The notes beneath the pieces were generated by a model. It did no database searches and was not told the DNA's origin. It saw only the letters and a list, made by a program, of their open reading frames with translations. The translations under genes and the position numbers were made by a program. Below, one piece after another: positions 19,904 through 45,405 of a stretch of 64,000 nucleotides of DNA (position 1 is its first letter; each line of letters opens with the position of its first letter). The DNA is from an uncultured Muribaculaceae bacterium (GTDB taxonomy: Bacteria; Bacillota_I; Bacilli_A; RF39; UBA660): contig CAZJTX010000001.1 of assembly GCA_964549115.1 (NCBI GenBank), forward strand, positions 56,494-120,493. Reading direction: 5' to 3'.

Positions 19904-21460
19904 ATGAAAAGGATTTTAATTCAAATTGAAAACAATAATATATATTTTAGATCCAAAAGAAAATTAACTAAAAATCAAGAAAATATAATGAATACTAACA
20001 TTATTTCTGGTAATGAGTTAACTTTTTCTGATGAGTATATTATCGAAAACAAAAAAATAGTTATTACCTTTATAAAAGAATTAGTTAAGGACAATAATAT
20101 AGATACCGCGATTATTTATAACAACTCTTTAGAAAGAGACTTAATAACTATTTTAAAACATATCCCTAACATTAAAAACTTAATATTAAAAGATAATGTT
20201 CCTCTTTCATTTAATATGTGTTCTGAAATTATAAAATCAAACATTAAAATGGTTAGTTGTTTTACTCTTCAAGATTTTTTGCTTGAATATTTGGATAGAA
20301 ATAACATAATAGTAGAAATCAGATGTGAACATCTTTTTGTAAGTGAATTCATGGAATTAAATATGTTAAATAAATACTCAAGTATTTATTATAAGAAAAT
20401 TCTTAATTTTAACTTTCCCCTAACTAAATCTGATATAGAAGACTTTGGGGCTTTCTTACACATTAATAAGTATCTTAAAGTTATTCACATCAACAACCCC
20501 ACTAAAGACGATTTGATTGTTTTATTAGATATTATTTTAAAACACAAAAAAACAAGTATAAAAATAGTTTTACATGATAATGTAACAGACATAGAATTAT
20601 TAGAACTTATTAAAAAACAAAATAATTTATTAAAAAAGAAAAGGATTAAAATAACAGTATCTTATAGTGACAACTATATAAAAAAGAACTTATTAAAACA
20701 AACTAATGTAACGATATTAAATATAAGTATATTGTTAATCATTACTTTAATATCTGTGAGTTTTATATATATATTTACAGATAATTATTTATCACATAAA
20801 AAAGTCGAAGGAATACAAGAAGATATTAAAGAAGTTATTAAAACAGTAGATGCAGAAACAATAATTCAAGAAATTGAAGAAAAAGAAAATTCTGTTGTAA
20901 TTAATGATTATATAGCTAGTTTAATAACTATAAATAGCGATACCGTTGGTTGGTTAAAAGTTCCTAATACAAGAATAGATTATTCGGTTGTTAAAGCTAA
21001 AAATAATGAGTTTTATCTAAGAAGAGATTTTAAAAAGAAAAAAGGAAGCATCGGATGGATCTTTATGGACGCTAGAAACAAAAGAGATATGAGTGATGAT
21101 AATACAATTATATACGGGCATAATTATTATGAAAGCACAATTATGTTTGGAACTTTAAAATATGCTTTAAATGAAAAATGGATATCAAACAAAAAGAATC
21201 TTATTATTTCATTTGATTCTTTATACGGTAATCTACAATATGAAATATTTTCAGTTTATATTGTTCCACCTGTTAACGATTATTTAAGAATTAATTATGA
21301 CAATATTTTAGATAGATTAGAATTTTTCAATATGTTAAAAGATAGAAGTATTCATAAATTTGATACAACTATAACTGGGGAAGATAAGATATTAACCTTA
21401 TCTACTTGTGAAGAAAAAGGAACTAAGAGACTTGTTGTTCATGCCAAATTAATAAAATAG
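19904..21460 (+). CDS. class B sortase fused to an N-terminal ~265 aa cytoplasmic LRR-like domain
   Basis: C-terminal domain has IIYGHN (His box), the TLSTC catalytic Cys motif and a conserved Arg (TKRLVVHAK). A TM helix spans about residues 268-290. The N-terminal domain has repeats of the LxxLxLxxN type. Confidence 0.6.
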   Translation: MKRILIQIENNNIYFRSKRKLTKNQENIMNTNIISGNELTFSDEYIIENKKIVITFIKELVKDNNIDTAIIYNNSLERDLITILKHIPNIKNLILKDNVPLSFNMCSEIIKSNIKMVSCFTLQDFLLEYLDRNNIIVEIRCEHLFVSEFMELNMLNKYSSIYYKKILNFNFPLTKSDIEDFGAFLHINKYLKVIHINNPTKDDLIVLLDIILKHKKTSIKIVLHDNVTDIELLELIKKQNNLLKKKRIKITVSYSDNYIKKNLLKQTNVTILNISILLIITLISVSFIYIFTDNYLSHKKVEGIQEDIKEVIKTVDAETIIQEIEEKENSVVINDYIASLITINSDTVGWLKVPNTRIDYSVVKAKNNEFYLRRDFKKKKGSIGWIFMDARNKRDMSDDNTIIYGHNYYESTIMFGTLKYALNEKWISNKKNLIISFDSLYGNLQYEIFSVYIVPPVNDYLRINYDNILDRLEFFNMLKDRSIHKFDTTITGEDKILTLSTCEEKGTKRLVVHAKLIK

Positions 21461-23224: not shown

Positions 23225-23260
23225 CTTGTCAACTATAAGCGTTTCCTTTATAATATATTT
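23225..23260 (+). promoter_or_regulatory. sigma-A-type promoter
   Basis: TTGTCA, a 17 nt spacer, then TATAAT, upstream of the TasA-like gene at 23289. Confidence 0.4.
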
Positions 23261-23288
23261 ACAGGGTAAGTTATGTAAAGGAGTGGCT

Positions 23289-23900
23289 ATGAAAGGTAAA
23301 GGTAAGATTATTCTATTACTATTATCATTAACAATTACTATCGGCTTTATGAATAGTACCTATTCAAGATATGTTGCTGGTACTACTGGTAATGTTGAAG
23401 CTGACTTTGCTAAGTGGCAATTATTAGTAAACAATAATGATATTACTGATAATAATACTAACAGTATTAGTTTTACTCCTGTCATAGAACAAAGTGAACA
23501 TGTAAGAGATAATGTTATCGCCCCTTCTTCAAAAGGATACTTCGATATTGAAATAGACCCTACTAATGTAGATGTATCATTTAAATATAAATTAAGTTTA
23601 CAAATTGAAAATGAAGAAGTGCCAGATCTACTAATGAGTAAATACGCGGTGTTACCACTTGATTACGAAGAAGAAGACCCACTAACATTTATAAATATAA
23701 TGGATAACGAAATAGAGAACTCATTATATATGAACAACACAATAGAAAATTTCAAGTACGAAAAATTCACTATTAGAATATACTTTGAATGGTTTGACAA
23801 TGAAGAAACAGACCATACAGAAATAGGTTATTTAGCAGCTACTGAAGGTTATGAATTAGATATTAGTGCAGATATAACATTTGAACAAATATTCAATTAA
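23289..23900 (+). CDS. TasA/camelysin-like (peptidase M73 family-like) secreted protein with SipW-cognate signal
   Basis: The start at MKGKGKII is preceded by AAAGGAG. The TM helix ends NSTYSRYVAG. A beta-rich region (GYFDIEIDPTNVDVSFKYKLSL) parallels the TasA FxFxNxG segment. Confidence 0.5.
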   Translation: MKGKGKIILLLLSLTITIGFMNSTYSRYVAGTTGNVEADFAKWQLLVNNNDITDNNTNSISFTPVIEQSEHVRDNVIAPSSKGYFDIEIDPTNVDVSFKYKLSLQIENEEVPDLLMSKYAVLPLDYEEEDPLTFINIMDNEIENSLYMNNTIENFKYEKFTIRIYFEWFDNEETDHTEIGYLAATEGYELDISADITFEQIFN

Positions 23901-23902
23901 AA

Positions 23903-23920
23903 ACAACTTTTAAAAGTTGT
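23903..23920. terminator. bidirectional terminator between convergent genes
   Basis: Perfect palindrome ACAACTTTTAAAAGTTGT followed by T7. Confidence 0.55.
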
Positions 23921-23928
23921 TTTTTTAT

Positions 23929-25152
23929 TTATAAGTTTATTTTTTCTACTGTAATAACTGGTACTATATTACATGATTCTAAATTATTCTTTTTATATAT
24001 AGCAGAGGTGTTCTCATCTTCTTTTTTTATGGCAAATGTTGAGGTAGTATCATATACTGTATTAGTCCAATAACAATTATTAGAAACTAAATACTCCGGT
24101 TTGTTATTAAAAGTAAATATAGAATTGTTTAATTTAGCTTTATTTATAATAGTATTTAATCTATCTCCATAATATATGTGACCTAAGATTTCGGGGGCTA
24201 TACCCGTAGTTATTATTTGAGTATTTACAACGTCTTTAGAAACAATAGTTAATAAATCACCCACTTCTAAGCCTTTATAAGGAACAGTCCAACTTGAAGC
24301 TAATAACTGCATATTAGAAGCATAATCTGTTTGATTTGATGTAACATACTGAGTTGAAGGGTCTAACATTAAATTAACCTCTAAATCCCCTTTTTTATTA
24401 TCTCCATCTATAACTCTAGTTTTATAACAATCATTACCCACACTTGAGCAAGCTTGATTTAATACTGGGTTAAATAACACCTTTTTCCCCATCGGATAAT
24501 CAAGATCTGATGATGTTGCATCTTTTATATGTTGTTCCGCTATTACGCTAATAACTATCTTTATAGATGGTTGAATTAGGTAATTAGGATCTTGTAGTTT
24601 TTTATTGGCTTCGCTTTTTTGAAAAGCATATGCTCCATTACCCCATAAACTGTCAGCTTCATCATCATTTGAATCTAATGGCCATGAAATTGATACTGTA
24701 AATGTACCTTCATCTCCGTGTGCTAATAAGTGGTTTTTACTAAAACTCATGTTAATATGAAAAGGATAATTATGAGATATAGAGTCCTCTATATAAAGAG
24801 TATTCGGATTAATTTCATCATATTCATAATAATCTTCTTCGTTTCCTAGAATTCTAGCTGATGTTACAATATATTTTAAACTAGCATCAGAATCCCCCAT
24901 GTTTTTTATTTCCATCTTTTCACTTACTAAATCCATACCTGGGTGAATGTCCGATAAGCTAATTTCTATTTGATTAGAGATTGCCTCCCCGTCTTTAGTT
25001 AATTCTATATACCATGCCTTAACATCTATCTCTGTAGTCATTGAAGATAATCCGCTGTAAGCAAACCACGCCAAAGTAACAGCCATAAAAGATGTGACTG
25101 CTAGTGCAACTGTTACTAAATTAGCTCTTATTATTTTTAGTTTCTTATTCAT
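23929..25152 (-). CDS. TasA/camelysin-like domain protein with long C-terminal extension and SipW-cognate signal
   Basis: 407 aa. Signal/anchor ending VTLAWFAYSG. MEIKNMGDSDASLKYIV aligns with TasA FQFENNGSLAIKEV. Immediately downstream of sipW, as in tapA-sipW-tasA. Confidence 0.55.
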   Translation of the reverse strand: MNKKLKIIRANLVTVALAVTSFMAVTLAWFAYSGLSSMTTEIDVKAWYIELTKDGEAISNQIEISLSDIHPGMDLVSEKMEIKNMGDSDASLKYIVTSARILGNEEDYYEYDEINPNTLYIEDSISHNYPFHINMSFSKNHLLAHGDEGTFTVSISWPLDSNDDEADSLWGNGAYAFQKSEANKKLQDPNYLIQPSIKIVISVIAEQHIKDATSSDLDYPMGKKVLFNPVLNQACSSVGNDCYKTRVIDGDNKKGDLEVNLMLDPSTQYVTSNQTDYASNMQLLASSWTVPYKGLEVGDLLTIVSKDVVNTQIITTGIAPEILGHIYYGDRLNTIINKAKLNNSIFTFNNKPEYLVSNNCYWTNTVYDTTSTFAIKKEDENTSAIYKKNNLESCNIVPVITVEKINL

Positions 25153-25169: not shown

Positions 25170-25721
25170 TTATACTGCGTTTCTCCTTTTTTCCTCTTTT
25201 GCTAACAATGACGTTAGTATTTGAGCTCCAACTATATAAAATGTCGGAATTATACAAAATAATAAAAATCCTATTTTATTACTTATTACTTTATATATAA
25301 ACGACAACACTACTGAACGATAAATTATCTTACCGTATAATTGATCTTCTGATATAATTGGGTCTTCAATTATATTGGCTAAACCTTTAGCTGAAAAATA
25401 ATATTTTCCATCTGAGGATTGCATTACGTTTGTAACTTCGTGAGTTACTACTTTTCCTTTAAAGCTACCCTCTTTACCTTGGTAACTAATCGGATCCCCA
25501 ATTTTTATTGATGAGGGCGGTACCTCTTTTGAGATTAACACATCTCCTACGTCATACTTAGGCATCATACTACCAGATATGACGGAAAACATTCGATATT
25601 TAAATATTGAAACCTGATTATTACTTATTCTTTGCAATAAAACTACTACTATAAACGCTAGTAGTAAAATAGTAACCACAACATTTAATATCTTTTTTGT
25701 TATTTTAAATGCTTTTTTCAT
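25170..25721 (-). CDS. sipW: signal peptidase I, archaeal/ER type (S26B), SipW-like
   Basis: 183 aa. N-terminal TM helix, the SGSMMP serine box, a VTHEV histidine box and a C-terminal TM helix. Good alignment to B. subtilis SipW. Confidence 0.8.
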   Translation of the reverse strand: MKKAFKITKKILNVVVTILLLAFIVVVLLQRISNNQVSIFKYRMFSVISGSMMPKYDVGDVLISKEVPPSSIKIGDPISYQGKEGSFKGKVVTHEVTNVMQSSDGKYYFSAKGLANIIEDPIISEDQLYGKIIYRSVVLSFIYKVISNKIGFLLFCIIPTFYIVGAQILTSLLAKEEKRRNAV

Positions 25722-26860
25722 TAAACGACTCCTTTTTTATTTTCTTTTAAGAACCTTTTCATTTCATCTTGGAATTGTTTTTTAATTTCTGTTTCTCCAG
25801 CAGTTCTCTTTATTTTCTCATTTTTAATTTCATCTGCAATCATTTTTATAATTTCGTCTTCACTTATATCATAACCACTATTTAGAAGAATCTCAATAAC
25901 TCTTCGTATTTGTTCCGTAATCATAACGATTCCATAATGATATAATTTTTCGTTTTGATCTCGTTTTCTACTTGAAATTGAATCTAAAACATAATAACTC
26001 ATTAAAAACGCATCGTCTAATATTCCACGCACCATTTCATTACCTGTTGTCTCTAACGATTGTTTACCTTGGGCATTTTCTTTAATCATGTCTTGATTTA
26101 ATAAAAATTGCCATAACTTACTTGCAATTTGGAAGTTGGGGTTTTTTAATATCATATTAGTTTTTCTAATTGGAGGAATAACAAATGGTACTCTTGCTTT
26201 TTCTAATGATGTAACAAATTCACTTCTTCTCCAGTTAGTTAAATAATCTTGAACAAATTTTATTCTAGATCTTATATCTTCAATTTCTTTTGCAAACTCC
26301 TCAGGGTTTTTATCTTTTGGTAATTCTCCAGAAGTAATTCTAAATTCTATATCTATTTTTTCAACATCTGTTTTAGCAGTAGATGAATATTCAAGATGTT
26401 TATGGTTTTTCATCTCAAAGTTATCTAACATTCTCTCTTTATCCAAGACAAATCTTAACATATGATCTATTAAAGTATATATAAATCTGTTTTCATATGT
26501 ATTATAAGTTTCTTCTCTTCTTTCAATTAATATCTTAGATGGTTGAACCTCCATAGTTTCTAAATCTATTTTATCGATAAAGTGAGTATTTTTAGCCAAG
26601 TTTTTAACACTTGCCACCCCTATTTTTTTGGCTTTTTCTATTGTTACTATGTCTTCTTCATTTATAAGCGCCATTCTAGGATTCTTTATAATGTTATCGA
26701 TATAAGGACAAGCAAACTCTAGTTCATCCAACCAATTTAAAGACATTGTATCACTGTCTACTTCCGACTTGTAATACATTGAAGAATCTACACTATCCAT
26801 GAATAGTGTAGCTTTTTCTTTTGCTAATTCTGTATTTTCAACATTAATCTTTTTAGCCAA
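25721..26860 (-). CDS. hypothetical cytoplasmic protein, partner of the AAA ATPase
   Basis: 379 aa. No TM helix and no recognisable catalytic motif. TAATG overlap with sipW. Follows the AAA gene by 12 nt. Confidence 0.35.
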   Translation of the reverse strand: MAKKINVENTELAKEKATLFMDSVDSSMYYKSEVDSDTMSLNWLDELEFACPYIDNIIKNPRMALINEEDIVTIEKAKKIGVASVKNLAKNTHFIDKIDLETMEVQPSKILIERREETYNTYENRFIYTLIDHMLRFVLDKERMLDNFEMKNHKHLEYSSTAKTDVEKIDIEFRITSGELPKDKNPEEFAKEIEDIRSRIKFVQDYLTNWRRSEFVTSLEKARVPFVIPPIRKTNMILKNPNFQIASKLWQFLLNQDMIKENAQGKQSLETTGNEMVRGILDDAFLMSYYVLDSISSRKRDQNEKLYHYGIVMITEQIRRVIEILLNSGYDISEDEIIKMIADEIKNEKIKRTAGETEIKKQFQDEMKRFLKENKKGVV

Positions 26861-26872
26861 GACTAATCACTC

Positions 26873-28414
26873 CTAAATTGATTTTTTCAATCTTTCCAAA
26901 TAATCTATACACTCTATCATTGCTCCATTTCCGAATTCCTTATTTAAGTATGCAATAAATGGATCAACTTCATCTCTTATTAATGTAATATTTAATTGGT
27001 CAAATTTTCTTAAAATTTTCTTTGCTATAAAGTAATCTATAGCTTCTACTTCTTCTCCCCCACAAGCAACATACACTGGAACAAATGTATTTAATTGTTT
27101 CATAATTCTGTTACCAAAAGCTATTCTAAAATGTTTAATAACATAATCATCCATTGCTCTAACTTTATCTATATTTGATTCTGAAACTTTTATTTGTTCT
27201 TCTGCTTCTTTAAATAATCCTTCTAAATAACTAGAATTAATATCCATTGCTGCCTGTTCTCTACTCTTAAATGGATCAATTCTACTATTGATATCTATCG
27301 GCATAGCTCTATCATAAACTTTATCCGTAACCATGAAGGTCGAGTCGTCGTTGTTAATTGTTCCGATATACCATAGATTTTCCGGTAGTATTAATTTACC
27401 ATTTTCTATTCTTTTAGGGTCATCTGGCCAAGCACTACTTACTACTTCAATTACCCACTCACTTCTTGATGGCATTTCATATATAGATAACATCTCCGCA
27501 AAGTAATACTCAACTCTCGCAATGTTCATCTCGTCTAATATAATTGTGTGAACATCGTCGTTAAATCCAGCTTCGTATAATTCCGCTAAAACATCTGATT
27601 CGTTAAACTTTTTCGTAAATTCGTTAAAGTATCCTAATAATTCTGTTTTATCTCTCCAAGACGGTTCAACTGATGCTATACATGCATCAACGTTAACAAA
27701 CTTACCCCAAGCATATGCTAGAGAGGTTTTACCAGTACCAGATATACCTTGTAAGATAATTAACTTACCACAAGCTAAACCCGCCATAAATGGTCTTAAA
27801 ATACTATAATCATAATACAATCTTAATTGACTAGCAGCGAATGCTCTAAAGTTGTCGGTTAATTCTTTTAAATTAAAATTATTACCATAATTTTTAACTT
27901 TATATCCTTTGTATTCTTCGTCTAATTTTGTAAGTTTAGTAAATCTAACATTAGCTAAATCTATTTCGCCTTCTTCTAATTCTTCTCCATCTTCAGTCAA
28001 CTGAACTTCTTCGTCATCAGGAGATAATCCTAGTTGCGAAACTTTCATTGCCATGATCTCATCTTTTTCTTTCATAAGTTTTTTAACTTGATGATTTAAA
28101 TCTCCGATTTCATTTAAAAGTTCTTCTTGATTATATTTTCCTCTTCCAAATTGAATGTATCTTTTAATACCCCAAAAGATTAACCAAAAAGTTAATCCTA
28201 CCATAGCAACTAAAACTAAAACAGTTAAACCCACTAATATCCATTCAACAGTTGTAAAACTTGTATTGTATGAGTTAAATACTTTTTGATAGTTCGTAAA
28301 CTTAAACATTTTAGCAAAGCCCGAACCTATTCCTTTAAATATAGTTATAACTCCATCAAAGAATATTGAGATAAACTCATAAAAGAATCTTACAAATGTG
28401 TGCATATTAATCAC
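26873..28414 (-). CDS. membrane-anchored AAA+ ATPase of the McrB/AAA_5 type
   Basis: 513 aa. One or two N-terminal TM helices followed by a coiled coil. Walker A GISGTGKTS, LDEMNIAR (DEiNRa-like) and NLWYIGTINNDDST…DRA (McrB-like). Confidence 0.55.
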   Translation of the reverse strand: MINMHTFVRFFYEFISIFFDGVITIFKGIGSGFAKMFKFTNYQKVFNSYNTSFTTVEWILVGLTVLVLVAMVGLTFWLIFWGIKRYIQFGRGKYNQEELLNEIGDLNHQVKKLMKEKDEIMAMKVSQLGLSPDDEEVQLTEDGEELEEGEIDLANVRFTKLTKLDEEYKGYKVKNYGNNFNLKELTDNFRAFAASQLRLYYDYSILRPFMAGLACGKLIILQGISGTGKTSLAYAWGKFVNVDACIASVEPSWRDKTELLGYFNEFTKKFNESDVLAELYEAGFNDDVHTIILDEMNIARVEYYFAEMLSIYEMPSRSEWVIEVVSSAWPDDPKRIENGKLILPENLWYIGTINNDDSTFMVTDKVYDRAMPIDINSRIDPFKSREQAAMDINSSYLEGLFKEAEEQIKVSESNIDKVRAMDDYVIKHFRIAFGNRIMKQLNTFVPVYVACGGEEVEAIDYFIAKKILRKFDQLNITLIRDEVDPFIAYLNKEFGNGAMIECIDYLERLKKSI

Positions 28415-30434
28415 TTTCTCCTTCTTTTAACTTCTTATATATATTTTCATAAATAATATTACCTTTATAATCATTAATTATACTTACTGGTGTATTATCT
28501 TTTACTTTTCTTGTCATAAACAAGTAATCTGCCAAATATATTCTTGTTTTATCTTTTACAGCTAATTTAGCATTAGTATCTAATATTAAAGCAAACTTGT
28601 AACCTAATTGTTTTAATTCTTTAATAATTTTATGATTAGCATTTAAGTCCTCATATGTAATACATGAAATAACATTATCCTTTGCATATTCATTATCAAA
28701 TAAACCAAACAATCTTTGTGTTTTCTTTACCTTTGGATATAAACTACCTGGAACATCTATATAATATTTTTTATCATGTTTATTATTAACTATATCATTT
28801 ACTAGTTGTTTTAATAATAATGTGATTAATATTTCTAGTTTGTCCTCCGCTACTACTCCTTCATTATATGTTTTATCAATTATGTAATCACTAAACACTT
28901 TGCTAAACGTAATATTGTGAGCTAATTTAACAACTTTCATATACTTTCTTGTTCTTACTTTAAAGAAGTCTAACTCAAATGTTGGAGCTCCCTCTTCCTC
29001 AAAGTAATATACATATAAATCTTTATATTTGTTTTGAACTTTAAGTATTTTCTCCGCCATATGTGGATGTTTTTCTTCTTCCCATTCTTTAAAGTTTTTA
29101 GCTAATGTCTTTTTAATAAATTCTTGCTTAACTTTATCTTCTTTTACAGTTTTATTAGCATGCTCTAAATGAGACACAACATTATAGTACTCAGAATATT
29201 TTTTAATAATGGTTTTTTCTTTATCGTCTTTTGTTTCTTTTAATAAGTCTTTCTCAAGTCTTTTTACTACTTTTAACATTTTATCTGTTATATTTTTCTC
29301 TACCGGTTTAATTGGTACACCTTTATAGAAATTATAATAATAACCTTTAACATAATGTTCACTATAATCTTTTTTAAACTTAGAATTAATTACATACTTT
29401 AGATCATCTTGGTTTAACAAGTCTACTATTTCAATAATTTCTTCTTGTTTTAAAGTTAGTAATAACTCCAGTACATTATCAGCCTTAGTTTCTTTCTTAG
29501 GCATTACTAATGGTTCTCTTGGTTTTTCTTTTTCTACTTCTTCTTTTGGCTCTTCTTTTACCACTGGTACTGGCTTTTGTTCTTTCATTTCTGTATTTGC
29601 AATTTCTAATAAGGTCTCATCTATCTCAGATTCATCAACCGATATCATCCTAAACAATACCGTTTCCGATTCTTCATCACTTATTGTATCCTCTTCAGTC
29701 GATTTCTCCTCGATTACTTCTTCTTTTGGTTCTTCTTTTACCTCTTCCTCTTCCATATCATCAATTAATACAGTCTTAAAAGTAACGGTTTTTTCTAAGT
29801 CTTCATTTATTTTATCTATATCTTCATCTTTAACTGTTATAACTTCAGTTAATTCTTTTTTAAGTTTTGGTTTTTTCTTTTCTTTTATCGGTCTTTCTTC
29901 TTTTGGGACAGGTTTATAAGTTTTTAATATATAATTAAAAATAACCACGGTTAACAATGCCGAAAACAATACCATTTTATTTAATATAACTTTTCTAAAT
30001 ATTCCAACATTAGGTATAATCTTTACTACTTTACCTACTATTTGTTTTGAAGATACAGGTTCATCTTTAACTTTATTAGCATCTCCCTTAGTTATATATT
30101 TATCTTGATATATACCTACTACTCTATGTGTAATAAACTCTTGATTAGATTCAAAAGTTATAACATCATTTAATTTAACATCTTTTGTTAACTTAACAAT
30201 AACCCAGTCTTGAGGCATGATGTGTTTAGCCATACTCCCAGTTTCTACTTCAAACAAAGAATATCCAAAAAATGTCGCATGTTTGGAATCAGTAAACTTT
30301 GTTTTTAAGTTTATAAATATAACAAGTACTAGTGTTAAACTAAATAAAAAAATTAGTATATTTAAAAATATATTCGCTATTTTTTTAAATACTTTATTAT
30401 TGTCAATTACCCCGTTTTTTATCTTCTCTATCAT
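28407..30434 (-). CDS. SipW-like S26B signal peptidase domain fused to a ~500 aa cytoplasmic KE-rich, possible degenerate EAL-like extension
   Basis: N-terminus has a TM helix, ETGSMAK, NDVITFESNQEFITHRVV, TKGDANKVKDEPVS and a second TM helix, aligning closely with SipW. The C-terminal region contains LKQLGYKFALILDTNAK and YLADYLF, which resemble EAL DDFG/KID blocks with the catalytic residues replaced. Confidence 0.55.
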   Translation of the reverse strand: MIEKIKNGVIDNNKVFKKIANIFLNILIFLFSLTLVLVIFINLKTKFTDSKHATFFGYSLFEVETGSMAKHIMPQDWVIVKLTKDVKLNDVITFESNQEFITHRVVGIYQDKYITKGDANKVKDEPVSSKQIVGKVVKIIPNVGIFRKVILNKMVLFSALLTVVIFNYILKTYKPVPKEERPIKEKKKPKLKKELTEVITVKDEDIDKINEDLEKTVTFKTVLIDDMEEEEVKEEPKEEVIEEKSTEEDTISDEESETVLFRMISVDESEIDETLLEIANTEMKEQKPVPVVKEEPKEEVEKEKPREPLVMPKKETKADNVLELLLTLKQEEIIEIVDLLNQDDLKYVINSKFKKDYSEHYVKGYYYNFYKGVPIKPVEKNITDKMLKVVKRLEKDLLKETKDDKEKTIIKKYSEYYNVVSHLEHANKTVKEDKVKQEFIKKTLAKNFKEWEEEKHPHMAEKILKVQNKYKDLYVYYFEEEGAPTFELDFFKVRTRKYMKVVKLAHNITFSKVFSDYIIDKTYNEGVVAEDKLEILITLLLKQLVNDIVNNKHDKKYYIDVPGSLYPKVKKTQRLFGLFDNEYAKDNVISCITYEDLNANHKIIKELKQLGYKFALILDTNAKLAVKDKTRIYLADYLFMTRKVKDNTPVSIINDYKGNIIYENIYKKLKEGESD

Positions 30435-30490: not shown

Positions 30491-30520
30491 AAAAAGAACA
30501 TCTTTTTTTTGATGTTCTTA
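30491..30520 (-). terminator. rho-independent terminator
   Basis: AAGAACATC-T8-GATGTTCTT. On the minus strand it is followed by a T-rich tract. Separates the 30518 gene from the 28407 gene. Confidence 0.55.
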
Positions 30521-37938: not shown

Positions 37939-39576
37939 TTATTCTGTTTTTTGAGTCTTTAATATTTTATTAGTTTCAGTTACAAACCAAATTTGTTCAA
38001 CATCGATTTTACTTTCTTCTATTATTTTTATTCTAAGCAGTAAATCCAGTTTCTCTAAAAGTAAATCAATGTCGCCTTCTTCAAAGTCCTCTTCTGTAAC
38101 ATTTATGTTTTCTAATCTATATTTATTAACTATAGTACTTTTCAAGTTATTATCTTCAAATACTAAAGCTCCTTTTGTAACAATGTTTGTTGTTTCTTTA
38201 GCGTAAGCATCAAAGTTATCGCTAATTTTCATTAAATCAGAATATGTTTCTAGGTCCATTAATTTTTTAATTACATCTTTTTTATAATAAGAATGGCTAT
38301 GATAAAAGTTCATTAATTCCGAAATAGTTAGAGCCTTGTTTAACATTGATAATACATTTATTGTGAAAAACTCATTATCTTCCTTTATATATAGATCATA
38401 TGTTAAATTAGCTAACTTATTAGACTCAATTTTTAATTGTTTTACTTCATAATTAGTCTTATTATCATTTAAGATTGTATCTTTTTTAAATATAGTATTG
38501 TTAATCTTTGCTAATTTACGTTCGTTCTTTTTAATGTCTTTGTTAATCTCTTTAATCTTTTTTAAATGTAAATTAACTCTTTTTTTGTCTCCAATTTGTT
38601 CTAGTTCTTTTATATATTCTTGTTTAAAATTATTTACAATAGGTAAAAAAGTCATATAATTCTTTAACTCAACTACATTTGTTCTTAGTTTTTCTACTGA
38701 AGAATAAAACTTTTCCAATTTTTGTTTATCATCCATATCCAATGCTTCGATGGATAGTGTTGTATATGCTGAAGTTCGGTTTTTACTTTCTTCAAAGAAA
38801 CTATTAACATCAGCTTCTCCGCTTTTAGCTAAATCAATTATGTCCCAAATAGTTTCGTTTTGAGTTAATAACAGTTCTCTTGAAGCTTCTTTTAGTTTAT
38901 CAATACATTCTTGATAAGTTTTAATCTTTTCAGCTTGCATAGACTTTGTTTGTTTATCTTTGATATAAGCATCAAACTTTTTGGCATTATCTTTTACTAA
39001 TTTTCTAAAAGTTAATTCTATGTGTTTTACTATTTCTGGGTTTAACCAGTATATTTGTTCAAACACTTTATTTAATTTAGTGAAATTCTTTTCTTCTTGG
39101 GATCTTTCTTTTAAGAACGCTTTCATGTAATCATGTACATATGAGGTTAACTTAAAGTCCGATGACACTAATTTAATATCAACTTTTTCAAATATTACTA
39201 ATAAGTCTTCTAATATTCGATTAAGTGATTTAAATTCAAAATCAGTATAATTGCTTAACTCATAGAATAAATTATCAAAATTTAATTTTTCGTAATATGT
39301 ATTACTTGGGTTAAGTAACATTTTTAATTCTTCAAGTTTTTTAACCTTTTCAATTAATTCTTCATTTTTACGAGATTCTTTTTTAGATAGTATTTTTTTA
39401 GTTTTAGCTTCTAAATATCTTTTTACTTGATCTTCATATTCTTCGTATTTAGCATGTATTTCATCTATCTTTTTATTTTTATTCTTTTTATTAGTTTTCG
39501 TTCTAACAGGAAGAGATGTTATTAAGGTGGTTTTAGCAGCTATATCTTCTTCTATAAACTCTAAAAAATTACTCAT
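37939..39576 (-). CDS. cytoplasmic coiled-coil protein
   Basis: 545 aa. No TM helix or signal peptide. K/E-rich heptad-like segments. Embedded between surface-protein paralogs. Confidence 0.4.
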   Translation of the reverse strand: MSNFLEFIEEDIAAKTTLITSLPVRTKTNKKNKNKKIDEIHAKYEEYEDQVKRYLEAKTKKILSKKESRKNEELIEKVKKLEELKMLLNPSNTYYEKLNFDNLFYELSNYTDFEFKSLNRILEDLLVIFEKVDIKLVSSDFKLTSYVHDYMKAFLKERSQEEKNFTKLNKVFEQIYWLNPEIVKHIELTFRKLVKDNAKKFDAYIKDKQTKSMQAEKIKTYQECIDKLKEASRELLLTQNETIWDIIDLAKSGEADVNSFFEESKNRTSAYTTLSIEALDMDDKQKLEKFYSSVEKLRTNVVELKNYMTFLPIVNNFKQEYIKELEQIGDKKRVNLHLKKIKEINKDIKKNERKLAKINNTIFKKDTILNDNKTNYEVKQLKIESNKLANLTYDLYIKEDNEFFTINVLSMLNKALTISELMNFYHSHSYYKKDVIKKLMDLETYSDLMKISDNFDAYAKETTNIVTKGALVFEDNNLKSTIVNKYRLENINVTEEDFEEGDIDLLLEKLDLLLRIKIIEESKIDVEQIWFVTETNKILKTQKTE

Positions 39577-39801: not shown

Positions 39802-41319
39802 TTAACTTACAATAACTGTTCTATAAACTCTAACAGCTCTGTTTCCTGCCCAGTCACTTACATCATAAGCTACGTAATATGTTCCTGCTTTAGATGTATC
39901 TACCGGATTTATAACTTGGATTCTATATGTTATGTCACCGTCAACATCATCTTCTGCTGTTGCGCCCGCATCAATATAGTCATCATTTAAATCAACGTTT
40001 ACTGTTTCTTCGCCTTCTAGTGTTATAACTGGTTTTGTTGTGTCTTCAACTTCTGGACGAGGTCCCTCATAACCGAAGTCGTCTCCAGTCATTCTTTGTT
40101 TTGTAAATCCAAATTGAACTGATATTCTTTTACCGATAAATGATAAATCATAGTTATCAATATCTTGACCTTCTAAGAAAACATATACTCTTACTTTAGT
40201 AATACTATTTGGAGCAAGTGTCATGAAAGCTGGTCTATTAACACTTTGTAAATCTCTATGTGTGTCTGTGAAATATGGATATGCTTTTAATTTATTATTT
40301 GTTATTGCTTCCATGTGTCCGTTATAAGCTTCACCATCATAAACGTTTACATGATCTGATACTGTTATAACATCTTGTACAGCATATGTTGGATAAGCTG
40401 CATCTTCTTCAATTAATCCACATGCGTTTTCCGAATATGAATCTTCATCATATACATCTATATCTGGAGTTTCGTCTACTCTTTCTCTACAGTTTGTTTC
40501 ATAATAATTGATTGCGCTTACAACGTGCTTTGTATCATTTGGTTCCCAAATTTGTGCATCTCTACAAATTCCGGTTATTCCATTATCAACATCAGGTTGT
40601 CCACCGTCTCCCACATTACATGTGATTCCGGTAATTTTATCTTGATCAGTTTCGGTTCCGATAACTCTTCCGATTTGAGCAAATGCTACTCTAATTGCGT
40701 TTTCAATGCCTGTATCTTCTTCTCCAGCTTCTGCTACTTCAACTTTTGAACCTGCACCTGCTTCAACGCCTTCATCTCTGTCTGTAATTAGATAAATTGC
40801 TTCTTCGTCTAAAAGATCTCTATCTTCAATATAAGCTGTTGATCCAGTATTTTTCACAAATAAATCAAACGCCACATAACCGGCTTGTTCCGTTTGGCTT
40901 TGTTCGTGGTTATTTACTCGACTACTAATTAATCTAAATCCACCTGGTCCTGTTGCTGGTACTGGTGTATGACTTGCTTTTTCAAACAATTTTAGTCTTG
41001 AAGCTTCTAAGTCAATTTCACCTACTGACGACATTGGAATTAAACCATGTGTTCCGCCCCAACTATTAGTGTTACCTTCATATGAATCTATATTAAAATT
41101 ATCTTCATTTATAGTAACTGTTGTGTCCCATTTCCTTCCATCTAATGATAGCATCAGGCCATCTACAACTGCTACTTCAATATCGAATGAAGTTACAGTA
41201 ACTGTTTGCATTCCTATAAACCATGCAAATGTTGCCACTAATAAGACAATTGCACTTAGTGCACTTATACCTACTAGATTTCTTACACGATTATCGTGTC
41301 TTTGATTTTTCTTGTTCAT
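39802..41319 (-). CDS. paralog B of the FAWFIGMQ/WLEGQD family with DUF5011 domain
   Basis: 505 aa. The N-terminal 80 aa are about 80% identical to paralog A. Same motif set. C-terminus PVITLEG…GTYYVAYDVSDWAGN. Confidence 0.6.
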   Translation of the reverse strand: MNKKNQRHDNRVRNLVGISALSAIVLLVATFAWFIGMQTVTVTSFDIEVAVVDGLMLSLDGRKWDTTVTINEDNFNIDSYEGNTNSWGGTHGLIPMSSVGEIDLEASRLKLFEKASHTPVPATGPGGFRLISSRVNNHEQSQTEQAGYVAFDLFVKNTGSTAYIEDRDLLDEEAIYLITDRDEGVEAGAGSKVEVAEAGEEDTGIENAIRVAFAQIGRVIGTETDQDKITGITCNVGDGGQPDVDNGITGICRDAQIWEPNDTKHVVSAINYYETNCRERVDETPDIDVYDEDSYSENACGLIEEDAAYPTYAVQDVITVSDHVNVYDGEAYNGHMEAITNNKLKAYPYFTDTHRDLQSVNRPAFMTLAPNSITKVRVYVFLEGQDIDNYDLSFIGKRISVQFGFTKQRMTGDDFGYEGPRPEVEDTTKPVITLEGEETVNVDLNDDYIDAGATAEDDVDGDITYRIQVINPVDTSKAGTYYVAYDVSDWAGNRAVRVYRTVIVS

Positions 41320-42512: not shown

Positions 42513-43955
42513 CTAATCTTCTACTATGACTGTTCTAATAACTTCTTCTGCCCAGTTACCTGCCCAGTCTCTTACGTTGTATCTAACTACATATGTACCC
42601 TCTACATTTGTATTTACATGGTTTTGAACAACAATATGTTCAGTTATATCTCCTTCTAAATTATCATCTGCCGTTGCACCTTCATCTGTATATGTCGAAC
42701 CAGTTGCTATACGTACAATCGGGTCTCCTATTAATGTAATTACAGGAGGAGTAACGTCTCTTGCTGGTGCTATATCTGGACCATCATAATCGAAGTCTTC
42801 CTCGGTTAAACGATCTTTGGTAAATCCAAAATGAACTGATATCCTTTTACCTATTGCAGCATAATCATAATTGTCAATATCTTGACCCTCTATATAAATA
42901 TATACCCTTACTTTAGTAATACTATTTGGTGCAAGTGTCATAAATGTTGGTCTTCTAACACCAGGCATATCTCTGTTTGTATCTGTAAAATATGGATATT
43001 TCATAACTTTAGGACTTGGAGCATAACTGTTATATTCTTGACCATCGTATATATCAACATTATCTGATGACATTAATTCTTGTCTTATAGCATATGTCGG
43101 ATAATATGTTTCATCTTCTAATTGGTGACACTTATCTGATGAATATGCTGTTGGCATATGTATTTGGGTTCCTACCCTTCTTCTACATGTTGCATCATAA
43201 AATTTAATTGCGTTTTCAACATGATATATATCATTTGGTTCCCAAATTTGACCTATTCTACAAATTCCTGTAATGCCGTCCTTAATTGAAGGAACTCCAA
43301 CATCATTCGCGTTACATGTTATTGATGTAATTAACTCTTGATCTGTTACAGCTGCTGATACTCTTCCGATTTGAGCAAAAGCTACTCTTACTGAATTTTC
43401 TATACCAGTATTTGCTATACCAGTCTCGGCAACATTAACTTCTGATTCAATAGATAAGTATATTGCTTCTTCATTTAATACATCGTCTATTTCAAAATAT
43501 TTTGGTCCCGAGAAATTTTTAATAAATAAGTCAAACGCTACATAACCGTCCGCTTCGGCTTCACCAGTATTGTGAACTCTACTTGCCATAATTCTATGTC
43601 CACCCGAAGTAGCTGTAAAACTAGATTTTTCAAAAAATACTAGCCTTGATGAATTAACATCAACTTCACCAATAGTAGACATTGGTATAAGTCCTCTTCC
43701 ACCCCACCTATTCGTATGTCCTGGATAAGACACTTCATCTACTGTTTCTTTAGTTATGCTCACAGTTGTGTTCCATTTTTTACCATCAAGTGACAATAAC
43801 AAACTATCCGTTGCAGCTATTTCAATATCAAATGATGTCACACTAACTATTTGCATTCCTATAAACCAAGCAAATGTTGTTACAAGCAATAATATAGCTG
43901 TTATTGTTGTAACTGTTATTAATTTCTTTAATCTTTTCGTATCTTTTTTAGTCAT
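42513..43955 (-). CDS. paralog D with DUF5011 domain
   Basis: 480 aa. Contains TTFAWFIGMQ, GYVAFDLFIKN, KVRVYIYIEGQDIDNYD and PVITLIG…GTYVVRYNVRDWAGN. Confidence 0.6.
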   Translation of the reverse strand: MTKKDTKRLKKLITVTTITAILLLVTTFAWFIGMQIVSVTSFDIEIAATDSLLLSLDGKKWNTTVSITKETVDEVSYPGHTNRWGGRGLIPMSTIGEVDVNSSRLVFFEKSSFTATSGGHRIMASRVHNTGEAEADGYVAFDLFIKNFSGPKYFEIDDVLNEEAIYLSIESEVNVAETGIANTGIENSVRVAFAQIGRVSAAVTDQELITSITCNANDVGVPSIKDGITGICRIGQIWEPNDIYHVENAIKFYDATCRRRVGTQIHMPTAYSSDKCHQLEDETYYPTYAIRQELMSSDNVDIYDGQEYNSYAPSPKVMKYPYFTDTNRDMPGVRRPTFMTLAPNSITKVRVYIYIEGQDIDNYDYAAIGKRISVHFGFTKDRLTEEDFDYDGPDIAPARDVTPPVITLIGDPIVRIATGSTYTDEGATADDNLEGDITEHIVVQNHVNTNVEGTYVVRYNVRDWAGNWAEEVIRTVIVED

Positions 43956-43965
43956 TTGCTATCTC

Positions 43966-45405
43966 CTATTCAACTATTACAGTTCTAGTAACTTCATCTG
44001 CCCAGTTACCTGCCCAGTCTCTTACGTTATATCTAACTATATATGTTCCTGTTTCCGCAGTGTTGACAGGATTATTTACAACTATATAAGGAGTTATATC
44101 TCCGTCTATATTATCACTTGCTGTTGCACCTAAGTCGTCATATGTTGATCCTTGATTAATAGTTATTTCATCTAAACCATTTAATAATATAATTGGTTTA
44201 ATTGTATCTCTTAGAGGTTCTAAATTCGGTCCTTCGTATCCAATATCGTCTTCAGTAAATCTTTGTTTTGTAAATCCGAATTTAACTGATAATTTTCTTC
44301 CTATTGAAGCATAATCATAATTATCTACATCTTGACCTTCTAAATATACATATACTCTTACTTTAGTAATACTATTTGGAGCCAAATACATAATAGGTAG
44401 TCTTTCAACACCTTCTAATTCTTTATCTGTATCTGTAAAATAAGGAACGCTAAATAACTTAGTACTACCCTCATATGTATTATATGCTGGTCCATCGTAT
44501 ATATTTACATAATCACTTGATGCAATAGGTTCACTAACTACATATGTTGGGTACGCTACTCCATCAACTATAGGATTACAAGTTCCACCATAAGATTCTG
44601 GTAATCTTGAATTTCCTCCAGTTCTTTTTAAACAATGAGTATCATACCAATCTATAGCTCCCGCCACGTGCTTAGTATCATTTGGTTCCCAAATTGATGC
44701 AGCTCTACATATTCCTGTTACTCCATCAACTATACTAGGTTTACCTTCTCCATCTGGATTACATGATATAGAAGCAATTTTTTCTTGATCTAATTCTGTA
44801 CCTATAACTCTTCCGATTTGAGCAAAAGCTACACGTACCGAATTTTCTAGTCCTGTATCTTCAACTCCACCATCTATAGCAACTTCTACAGATGAATCAA
44901 CAGATAAATAAATTCCTTCTTCATCTAATAAATTATATTCTGGAGTATAAGCACTTCCTGTCATATTTCTAACAAACAAGTCAAATACTACATAACCATC
45001 TGCTTCTTTGTCTCCTGTATTTTCTACTCTACTTGCCATTAAACTATGGCCACCAGGTATAGCAGTTATTCCTGCCTTTTCAAAAAGCATTAATCTAGAT
45101 GTATTCACATCAATTTGTCCAATTGTTGACATCGGTTCTAATCCGCCGCCTGACCACCAATTAGTATGATTTGGATATGATACATTTTCTAAATTTTCTC
45201 GGTTAATACTTACCGTAGTATCCCAGCTCACTCCATCTAGTGATAATAATAAGTTTTCAGCTGCTGCAATATCAATATCAAATGATGATACCATTACTGA
45301 TTGCATTCCAATAAACCAACCAAATGCAGTAAAGATTAATACTACCGCACTTAAAGCCATTAGAATCAACTGACGTCTTATTTTAATTGTACTTTCTTTC
45401 TTCAT
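43966..45405 (-). CDS. paralog E with DUF5011 domain
   Basis: 479 aa. Contains TAFGWFIGMQ, GYVVFDLFVRN, KVRVYVYLEGQDVDNYD and PIILLNG…GTYIVRYNVRDWAGN. Confidence 0.6.
   Translation of the reverse strand: MKKESTIKIRRQLILMALSAVVLIFTAFGWFIGMQSVMVSSFDIDIAAAENLLLSLDGVSWDTTVSINRENLENVSYPNHTNWWSGGGLEPMSTIGQIDVNTSRLMLFEKAGITAIPGGHSLMASRVENTGDKEADGYVVFDLFVRNMTGSAYTPEYNLLDEEGIYLSVDSSVEVAIDGGVEDTGLENSVRVAFAQIGRVIGTELDQEKIASISCNPDGEGKPSIVDGVTGICRAASIWEPNDTKHVAGAIDWYDTHCLKRTGGNSRLPESYGGTCNPIVDGVAYPTYVVSEPIASSDYVNIYDGPAYNTYEGSTKLFSVPYFTDTDKELEGVERLPIMYLAPNSITKVRVYVYLEGQDVDNYDYASIGRKLSVKFGFTKQRFTEDDIGYEGPNLEPLRDTIKPIILLNGLDEITINQGSTYDDLGATASDNIDGDITPYIVVNNPVNTAETGTYIVRYNVRDWAGNWADEVTRTVIVE

Follow-up and report, generated by a model that had tools for sequence, protein, structure and literature searches.

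The window analysed here is a 64,000-nucleotide stretch of DNA from an uncultured bacterium (contig CAZJTX010000001.1 of assembly GCA_964549115.1, positions 56,494 to 120,493), and one of its genes encodes a protein in which a SipW-type signal peptidase is joined, through a long disordered tether, to a helical bundle and an EAL-like domain. This fusion protein is a membrane protein with two transmembrane (TM) helices, the peptidase lying outside and the tether, the helical bundle, and the EAL-like barrel lying in the cytoplasm. Judging from the residues that it has lost, the EAL-like domain is catalytically dead and is no phosphodiesterase. The helical bundle and the EAL-like domain together (the module) would, on a cautious estimate, probably serve as a protein–protein adaptor that docks the peptidase to a machine composed of the GTPase and the DUF2357 protein encoded directly downstream.

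The first-pass annotation of this DNA described a SipW with a large cytoplasmic domain as unusual. The fusion is real, but it is not a one-off; it represents a conserved three-gene unit in its fused form. A chance open reading frame and an assembly chimera were both rejected, as the identical 675-residue protein is encoded on eight public metagenome contigs and the fusion occurs in about 70 species; the same protein is also present in a 15-billion-protein collection (P0014). An index-based search of 5.8 billion clusters returned 13 relatives of the C-terminal region, seven of which share the peptidase fusion, and when 1.84 billion cluster representatives were searched exhaustively with a HMMER profile, 432 relatives were found, 200 of them at <1e-30. 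The relatives fall into two size classes, one of 600–870 amino acids (fused) and the other of about 325–335 amino acids, which corresponds to a free-standing helical and EAL-like module. A scan using one genome per species located 72 syntenic loci; the annotation had proposed to look for other SipW homologues with C-terminal extensions. All carriers are uncultured, low-GC metagenome-assembled genomes (MAGs) labelled Bacilli, Mollicutes, Erysipelotrichia, and similar, and some of the isolate names point to ruminant or human-gut samples.

The peptidase half

Residues 19–171 of the fusion protein match TIGR02228, the archaeal and endoplasmic-reticulum-type signal peptidase I family, with 66.8 bits against a curated cut-off of 51.85, covering positions 3–153 of the 158 positions of the model. 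The Bacillus SipW equivalog NF046067 gives 52.9 bits (3.2e-14), far below its cut-off of 190, and the fusion peptidase is therefore SipW-type rather than a SipW ortholog. When a profile of the peptidase part was compared with the PDB, the best solved relatives were human SEC11A (E 7.5e-9) and SEC11C (E 1.2e-8), which agrees with the SipW-type assignment originally given to this region. The blocks GSM (with Ser67), THRV (with His103), and KGDANKVKDE (with Asp118 and Asp124) align to the SGSM, VHRV, and KGDNNAVDD blocks of SEC11A, placing the catalytic Ser, His, and Asp of the fusion protein in register with those of an S26B peptidase. Ser67, His103, and Asp124 are invariant in the orthologs, fused and unfused alike, and the Ser-Met and His motifs are kept in every fused ortholog listed. 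As in S26B enzymes, Ser-His(-Asp) residues are present in place of the Ser-Lys dyad of S26A. Together, these features show an S26B signal peptidase with intact catalytic residues, which is predicted to be active.

Hydropathy analysis places two hydrophobic helices at residues of about 20–42 and 150–172, and the second of these coincides with a helix predicted at residues 153–172, in keeping with the earlier description of a second TM helix followed by a cytoplasmic extension of about 500 residues. By analogy with the known topology of S26B peptidases, everything past residue 172 should reside in the cytoplasm.

The helical bundle and the EAL-like domain

The C-terminal region has no match in Pfam, NCBIfam, or PADLOC, and the matches that it gives in sequence and profile searches of the PDB were rejected as spurious and helical only (for example, VPS28 at E 0.009). 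The structural model is far more informative. Residues 308–675, modelled by AlphaFold2 from a 10-sequence alignment, form a helical bundle and a beta/alpha domain with a mean predicted local distance difference test score (pLDDT) of 81 and a predicted template-modelling score (pTM) of 0.80, and residues 486–669 of the beta/alpha domain are modelled at a pLDDT of 85–95. The best structural matches of the beta/alpha domain model are exclusively EAL domains. This domain is confidently modelled and EAL-like, and is neither disordered nor unrelated to EAL. The six-helix bundle that precedes this domain gave no informative fold match; its Tyr361 is invariant in 40 sequences.

The domain adopts the EAL-type modified TIM-barrel fold, whereas the EAL sequence profile does not recognize it: the Pfam EAL model (PF00563) does not match the query at E ≤ 0.1 or any of 40 family members at E ≤ 0.01, and a canonical EAL hidden Markov model (HMM) built for this analysis finds nothing at E ≤ 1. 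The sole profile–profile match to canonical EAL, obtained with hhalign between a 105-sequence family alignment and a 94-sequence EAL alignment (91 canonical homologs, the bait, YdiV, and STM1697), is marginal, with an E of 0.062 over 23 core columns. The matched block corresponds to alpha4–beta5, YEDLNANHKIIKELKQLGYKFAL aligning with mEDistaaqhLlsLRraGaliAI, and is the block that the first-pass annotation had picked out by eye; the two stretches in which a degenerate EAL-like module had been suspected (LKQLGYKFAL.. and ..DYLF..) fall in register at beta5 and beta6, and the predicted fold agrees with that suspicion. When the match is extended by realignment, ISCIT lies under LEvTE, Asp619-Thr620 lies under the DD of DDFG, and D-Y-L-F639 lies under the D-k-l-K of the KID motif. 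Given the marginal hhalign match, the EAL catalytic positions of beta1–beta4 were left out of the residue mapping.

At the positions that can be mapped, the catalytic residues of EAL have largely disappeared from the family (Table 1). The model contains only seven strands and the chain ends after beta7, and therefore the EAL strand that bears the conserved Gln is missing. The domain instead has a conserved set of its own among 105 members, consisting of Phe486, Leu488, Leu504, His506, Asn507, Tyr557, Pro562, Lys568, and Lys571, and includes the conserved stretch F-S-x-x-Y-S-x-Y-I-I-D-K-x-Y-x-E-G-x-x-A-E-D-K. The cyclic di-GMP (c-di-GMP) sensing that had been suggested for this protein is not borne out by these observations: none of the 40 family members matches Pfam EAL, a hydrophobic residue takes the place of the Lys, conservation of the DD pair and of the Glu is poor, and the last strand appears to be missing. 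A crude scan of the window and 80 related loci (1.37 Mb of a syntenic sample, with a GGDEF model made from one fragment) found no canonical EAL or GGDEF domain.

Fused and split loci

In four independent split loci (L075, L081, L082, and L084), a free module of 301–349 amino acids is encoded directly upstream of the GTPase and the DUF2357 protein. A SipW orthologous to the fusion peptidase (34–41% identity) is encoded one to two genes further upstream. The split loci have the same set of genes in a permuted order, namely a dead SipW, a secreted protein of about 200–215 amino acids (250 in L075), SipW, a secreted protein of 190–206 amino acids, a secreted protein of 220–295 amino acids (absent from L075), the module, the GTPase, and the DUF2357 protein. 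The GTPase is by far the best conserved of these proteins, with 52–58% identity to its counterpart in the window, compared with 26–32% for the module. As the module adjoins the GTPase and the DUF2357 protein in both the fused and the split loci, the constant unit consists of the module, the GTPase, and the DUF2357 protein. On this comparison of loci, SipW and the module were joined in a lineage-specific Rosetta-stone event.

The tether and its repeated motif

The region between the second TM helix and the helical bundle is the charged, Lys/Glu-rich linker that the first-pass annotation had read in it, and is modelled at very low confidence throughout (Table 1). The tether is 114–304 amino acids long in the orthologs, with a median of 153, and is about 145 amino acids long here. 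It contains a conserved motif with the consensus E-[ED]-[DE]-L-[ED]-K-T-x-x-[FY]-R-x-[IV]-[SP]-V-D-x-x-[ED]-[VIL], of which 90 instances were found in 69 fused orthologs, the Thr being kept in 100% of them, the Arg in 98%, and the Lys in 95%. One to four copies are arranged in tandem in 66 of the 69 fused orthologs, and proteins with more copies tend to be longer (r = 0.65). None of the split loci, with their free module, contains the motif. As judged from this pattern of conservation, the tether is more than a spacer, and the motif copy number explains much of its variation in length.

The GTPase and its DUF2357 partner

The gene directly downstream of the fusion gene, previously annotated as encoding an AAA ATPase, does encode an AAA+ protein, but more specifically a membrane-anchored McrB-family GTPase of the NxD type with a DUF2357 partner. 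It matches McrB (NF008457) at 9.2e-5 and the PADLOC family PDC-M26A at 1.9e-37 over the core. Its Walker A (GISGTGKT), Walker B (ILDEMN), and signature (INNDD) motifs are invariant in 70 orthologs, and the GTPase is apparently active, judging by these invariant motifs. According to Bell et al. (2024, PMC11090510), a second D or an E usually comes after the NxD signature. N-N-D-D would also fit NxxD, so that NxD is assigned here from this pattern and the architecture, not from a phylogeny. The N-terminus contains two hydrophobic segments followed by a conserved heptad-like sequence, LL.EI..LN..V.kLMKEKdEiMAMK, in which Pfam detects no FtsB/DivIC homology.

The genes of the fusion protein and the GTPase were described at first as overlapping by 8 nucleotides, an overlap that requires a GTG start (open reading frame 26873..28414). 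The conserved N-terminus of the GTPase (M-x-T-F-x-R-F-F-Y-E-F) and public gene calls instead give an ATG start at 28405, 1 nucleotide past the stop of the fusion gene. Across 57 fused loci, the distance from the fusion stop to the conserved GTPase start ranges from −4 to +17 nucleotides, and is most often 2–3 nucleotides; the close coupling of the two genes is conserved all the same.

The locus comparison comprises the 72 species loci and one more (73 in total). An ortholog of the GTPase is present in 72 of these and the DUF2357 protein, encoded directly downstream of it, in 69. The DUF2357 protein is McrC-like; inspection of a 68-sequence conservation map of this protein revealed no conserved D..ExK of a PD-(D/E)xK nuclease motif.

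Organization of the locus

The conserved chromosomal locus comprises about 12 genes, which follow an almost invariant order across the 73 loci: genes for a 339-residue protein, a 545-residue coiled-coil protein, secreted proteins of about 1200, 184, and 298 residues, a catalytically dead SipW paralog, the fusion protein, the NTPase of about 510 residues described above as the GTPase, the DUF2357 protein of about 377 residues, a second SipW, a secreted protein of about 407 residues, and, on the opposite strand, a secreted protein of about 210 residues. The stretch from the dead SipW through the fusion protein, GTPase, DUF2357 protein, and second SipW to the 407-residue protein is kept in a near-invariant order across the 73 loci. 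The coordinates are listed in Table 1.

Table 1. Features of the SipW–EAL-like fusion protein and of the surrounding locus. Positions are those of the window unless given as residues of the fusion protein.
Feature	Position	Strand	Basis and details
Fusion gene: SipW-type peptidase, tether, helical bundle, and EAL-like domain	28407..30434	(-)	Open reading frame, 675 amino acids
S26B (SipW/Sec11-type) signal peptidase domain, residues 19-171	29922..30380	(-)	TIGR02228; TM1 at about residues 20-42
Catalytic residues Ser67; His103; Asp124	30234-30236; 30126-30128; 30063-30065	(-)	Asp118 also kept
TM2, residues about 150-172	29919..29987	(-)	Hydropathy; helix 153-172 in full-length model; returns chain to cytoplasm
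Disordered K/E/P-rich tether, residues 173-315	29490..29918	(-)	pLDDT <50 (full-length AlphaFold2 model); K+E = 0.42
Tether motif, strong copy, residues 253-283, ..EESETVLFRMISVDESEIDETLLEIANTEM	29586..29678	(-)	Motif family
Tether motif, degenerate second copy, residues 211-225, EDLEKTVTFKTVLID	29760..29804	(-)	Motif HMM, 6.8 bits (weak), and direct reading
Six-helix cytoplasmic bundle, residues 321-479	28998..29474	(-)	AlphaFold2, pLDDT mostly 80-90; invariant Tyr361 in YYN motif
Degenerate, C-terminally truncated EAL-like beta/alpha barrel, residues 486-675	28410..28979	(-)	AlphaFold2; seven strands
Position of first Asp of EAL DD	residue 619		D 53, N 22 of 105
Position of second Asp of EAL DD	residue 620		Variable among 105
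Position of catalytic Lys of EAL	residue 639		F 76, I 13, L 11 of 105
Position of Glu of AEGVE	residue 663		E 54 of 105
Membrane-anchored McrB-like GTPase	26873..28405	(-)	HMM matches and motifs; two N-terminal hydrophobic segments, coiled coil, AAA+ GTPase
McrC-like DUF2357 protein	25721..26860	(-)	PF09823, 3.8e-10 (McrC N-terminal domain)
Second SipW-type peptidase, 183 amino acids	25170..25721	(-)	TIGR02228, 78.6 bits; in 65/73 loci
Secreted protein, 407 amino acids	23929..25152	(-)	In 66/73 loci
Secreted protein, 224 amino acids	23226..23900	(+)	Probable start ATG near 23289; in 52/73 loci
Terminator-like hairpin (weak), between dead SipW paralog and fusion gene	30494..30519	(-)	Consensus scan: 9-bp stem, 3 GC pairs, T-run
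Catalytically dead SipW paralog, 175 amino acids	30518..31045	(-)	Weak TIGR02228 match, 0.0036; in 55/73 loci
Predicted substrates: three secreted proteins of 1208, 184, and 298 amino acids	31104..36187	(-)	N-terminal TM and TasA-type T-[YFW]-[AS]-x-[FY]-like motif
Lys/Glu-rich protein, 545 amino acids, apparently cytoplasmic coiled coil	37939..39576	(-)	No Pfam match; in at least 37 related loci
Four paralogous surface proteins, about 480-505 amino acids	36327..37844; 39802..41319; 42513..43955; 43966..45405	(-)	C-terminal Bact_surface_Ig-like PF16403
Sortase-domain protein	19904..21460	(+)	PF04203, residues 351-516
Protein of 550 amino acids	5458..7110	(-)	ALK/LTK glycine-rich domain PF12810, 6.2e-34

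The two additional SipW paralogs differ in their catalytic residues. The 183-residue paralog keeps the Ser, the His, and the distal Asp, with Gly-Leu replacing Gly-Asp, as is also the case in the ortholog of locus L001. The 175-residue paralog, encoded immediately upstream of the fusion gene, has neither the catalytic Ser nor a conserved His, and may be a pseudo-peptidase chaperone analogous to Streptococcus pyogenes SipA.

The three predicted substrates are conserved in 53–55 loci. The N-termini of the co-encoded secreted proteins contain the sequences ATYSYF, FTFSRYV, STYSRYV, VTLAWFAY, and ATFAWF, VTLAWFAY and STYSRYV being those of the 407- and 224-residue proteins encoded at 23226..25152, and these N-termini resemble the TasA/CalY signal-peptide junction. 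The small secreted proteins of the locus have no sequence or profile match in the PDB. The gene for the 545-residue protein lies just upstream of the gene for the giant secreted protein. Among the four PF16403 paralogs, which are less conserved than the core genes, at least both 505-residue copies have TasA-type N-termini (..ATFAWF..); the fibre might use these paralogs as alternative or variable subunits.

The ATG of the fusion gene is not preceded by a visible Shine-Dalgarno-like sequence, and a promoter scan was uninformative in this AT-rich DNA, with 67 sites found against 66.7 expected. The flanks of the window contain the housekeeping genes for IF-2, NusA, FtsK, FtsY, and RNase J, and the locus is elsewhere flanked by ribosomal protein S2 and EF-Ts, by mraZ/rsmH, or by RelA/TyrRS; a mobile or defence island was rejected on the basis of these housekeeping flanks. 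About 1.8 kb past the last conserved gene, the window also encodes a sortase-domain protein with an N-terminal extension of about 350 residues and an internal TM segment, which has no homolog in the available flanks of the related loci. Elsewhere, the window encodes a 550-residue protein that matches the ALK/LTK glycine-rich domain strongly.

Proposed role of the module and alternative explanations

In the proposed mechanism, the peptidase half would cut the N-terminal membrane anchors off the fibre or pilus subunits encoded in the locus, at the outer face of the membrane. The helical and EAL-like module would turn over no nucleotide and would act as an adaptor, in effect a third subunit of the downstream GTPase/DUF2357 machine, and the fusion would physically tie subunit processing to a complex in the cytoplasm that hydrolyses GTP and by which the assembly of the fibre is controlled or powered. 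The repeated motif of the tether would probably provide extra docking sites. The adaptor role is proposed because of the strict adjacency of the module and the GTPase in fused and split loci and because of the invariant motifs of the GTPase, and such a role is plausible for a dead EAL fold because of the precedent of YdiV and STM1697. The fuller proposal, in which a GTPase motor derived from McrBC and anchored in the membrane has the module as its third subunit and couples GTP hydrolysis to the processing, polymerization, or release of a TasA-like fibre, is more speculative, and is put forward as a tentative possibility.

Several observations weigh against this scheme. The TasA-likeness of the secreted proteins is weak, as PF12389 (Peptidase_M73) matches 3 of 60 (best 0.0011) and the TasA model NF046066 matches 1 of 60 (7.7e-4). 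The EAL-like domain has conserved polar residues, with Tyr557, Lys568, and Lys571 present in 105 of 105 members, Glu530 in 104 of 105, and His506 and Asn507 in 81–86%, and these may leave room for a small anionic ligand. Binding of c-di-GMP itself has no positive support, yet retains a small probability, as two invariant lysines might hold a phosphate. Adjacency and fusion are evidence of a functional link rather than of a mechanism. The need of the fibre for GTP is an inference, and the TasA fibres of Bacillus subtilis are not known to need an NTPase for their assembly.

A second-messenger receptor is the likeliest of the alternatives, although it is unlikely. The degenerate barrel would bind c-di-GMP or some other nucleotide (pGpG, c-di-AMP, or GTP, for example) and gate the peptidase across the membrane, much as LapD controls periplasmic proteolysis from the inside out. 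None of the residues of the domain that are conserved in at least 80% of members is an Arg, the residues of the DD, Lys, and Glu positions have disappeared or vary, and no Pfam EAL signal is present; the absence of canonical EAL and GGDEF domains from the 1.37 Mb also counts against a receptor, if weakly, given the non-independent sampling. The disordered tether of about 145 residues would transmit conformational signals to the peptidase poorly, and in the split loci the module also functions as a free protein.

The module could also act independently of the GTPase by regulatory sequestration, as an anti-factor for a regulator of transcription or translation, similar to YdiV and FlhD. The module would then be an extension of the signalling role, independent of peptidase activity, that has been reported for the C-terminal tail of B. 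subtilis SipW. This alternative is improbable, as the locus has no conserved regulator gene, the conserved genes give no DNA-binding Pfam match, and it does not explain why the module, fused or split, is so strictly encoded next to the GTPase and has its translation nearly coupled to that of the GTPase.

An envelope-linked defence system appears to be just as improbable. The McrBC-derived pair would still be anti-phage, the peptidases and secreted proteins would form a sensor or effector arm, and the EAL-like module would couple an event at the envelope to the GTPase. The match of the GTPase to PDC-M26A, which is a candidate defence family of PADLOC, speaks for this explanation, as does its placement in the NxD branch that also holds the CoCoNuT defence systems. 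The PADLOC match, however, covers only the GTPase core (residues 180–315), the other five locus proteins scanned belong to no named defence family, and inspection of the McrC-like protein showed no nuclease motif. The locus is single-copy and syntenic in 72 species, with housekeeping flanks and no defence islands or mobile elements, and Bell et al. (PMC11090510) tie these systems to pilus assembly.

An active c-di-GMP phosphodiesterase fused to the peptidase, which has only the fold in its favour, is effectively refuted and exceedingly improbable, as the mappable catalytic positions are lost among the 105 members (the Lys position being hydrophobic, the DD pair and the Glu unconserved, and the last strand gone) and no HMM similarity to EAL is found.

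If this fuller proposal, with the module as a subunit of a GTPase motor, is correct, the locus would represent an uncharacterized machine of uncultured low-GC Bacilli that assembles a pilus or fibre in an NTP-dependent manner. In the prevailing view, TasA-type fibres assemble by themselves outside the cell with no energy source, and a GTPase-linked peptidase would suggest a controlled or powered route. The EAL fold would have been put to a new use, in lineages that have no diguanylate cyclase or canonical EAL domain in the limited DNA sampled, and a deeply diverged, HMM-invisible branch of this fold would be serving as a structural adaptor. The carriers are widespread uncultured MAGs similar to Bacilli and Mollicutes, and as some of their isolate names point to ruminant or human-gut samples, the fibre may matter for attachment to a host or within a community.

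Comparison with known systems

The locus fits the description of the CoCoPALM class, with an NxD GTPase, a DUF2357 protein, three SipW paralogs, and TasA-type secreted proteins. Bell et al. (2024, PMC11090510) named CoCoPALM in one paragraph and deferred its analysis to a later publication, describing NxD McrB-like GTPases fused to an FtsB-like TM segment and coiled coil that occur with "pilus assembly factors" of the signal-peptidase family. The system described here likewise has an NxD-type McrB-like GTPase, here with two N-terminal hydrophobic segments and a putative coiled coil, an adjacent McrC/DUF2357 protein, and proteins of the signal-peptidase family; unlike the account in that paper, it includes an EAL-like module, a peptidase fusion, a tether motif, and a set of secreted proteins, none of which is mentioned there. 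In the literature searched, no follow-up on CoCoPALM and no mention of an EAL-like component were found, and the supplementary text of the CoCoNuT paper holds nothing on CoCoPALM, EAL, or SipW. The class is already known by name, and barely described; with the locus analysed here, the unexplored CoCoPALM class would gain a concrete, testable architecture.

Among the individual components, the fusion peptidase resembles B. subtilis SipW of the tapA-sipW-tasA operon in its peptidase type, in its N- and C-terminal TM helices, and in being encoded beside secreted proteins with TasA-type N-termini. B. subtilis SipW has a short cytoplasmic tail and its operon contains no GTPase, in contrast to the roughly 500 cytoplasmic residues found here. 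In a model proposed for BsaA of Clostridium perfringens, the cleavage of a membrane-anchored TasA-like subunit by SipW is a step of the polymerization cycle (PMC11580942).

YdiV and STM1697 are EAL-like adaptor proteins of enterobacteria in which eight of ten catalytic residues are lost and which do not bind c-di-GMP; they bind FlhD and promote its degradation by ClpXP, and YdiV neither binds nor cleaves c-di-GMP (PMC3510510). Unlike these proteins, to which it has no detectable sequence relationship, the EAL-like domain of the fusion is truncated after beta7, is preceded by a helical bundle, is tethered to a membrane peptidase, and has an McrB-like GTPase as its partner. LapD, a degenerate GGDEF-EAL receptor of c-di-GMP that controls the periplasmic protease LapG, still uses its EAL residues to bind c-di-GMP and relays the signal by way of a rigid HAMP/S-helix; LapG is a protein of its own. 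The fusion protein differs from LapD in having its peptidase attached by a disordered tether and in having lost the binding residues. S. pyogenes SipA/LepA is an inactive signal-peptidase homolog needed for the polymerization of sortase-assembled pili, unlike the fusion protein, which keeps its catalytic residues.

Finally, the system shares with Escherichia coli McrBC a GTPase core with Walker A and B motifs and an Asn/Asp signature, as well as a partner with a DUF2357 domain. It differs in that the GTPase has no DNA-binding N-terminal domain, is membrane-anchored, and carries an NxD rather than an NxxD signature, while no nuclease is recognizable and an EAL-like protein forms a third partner, suggesting that the motor of a restriction enzyme may have been recruited to a function at the cell surface.

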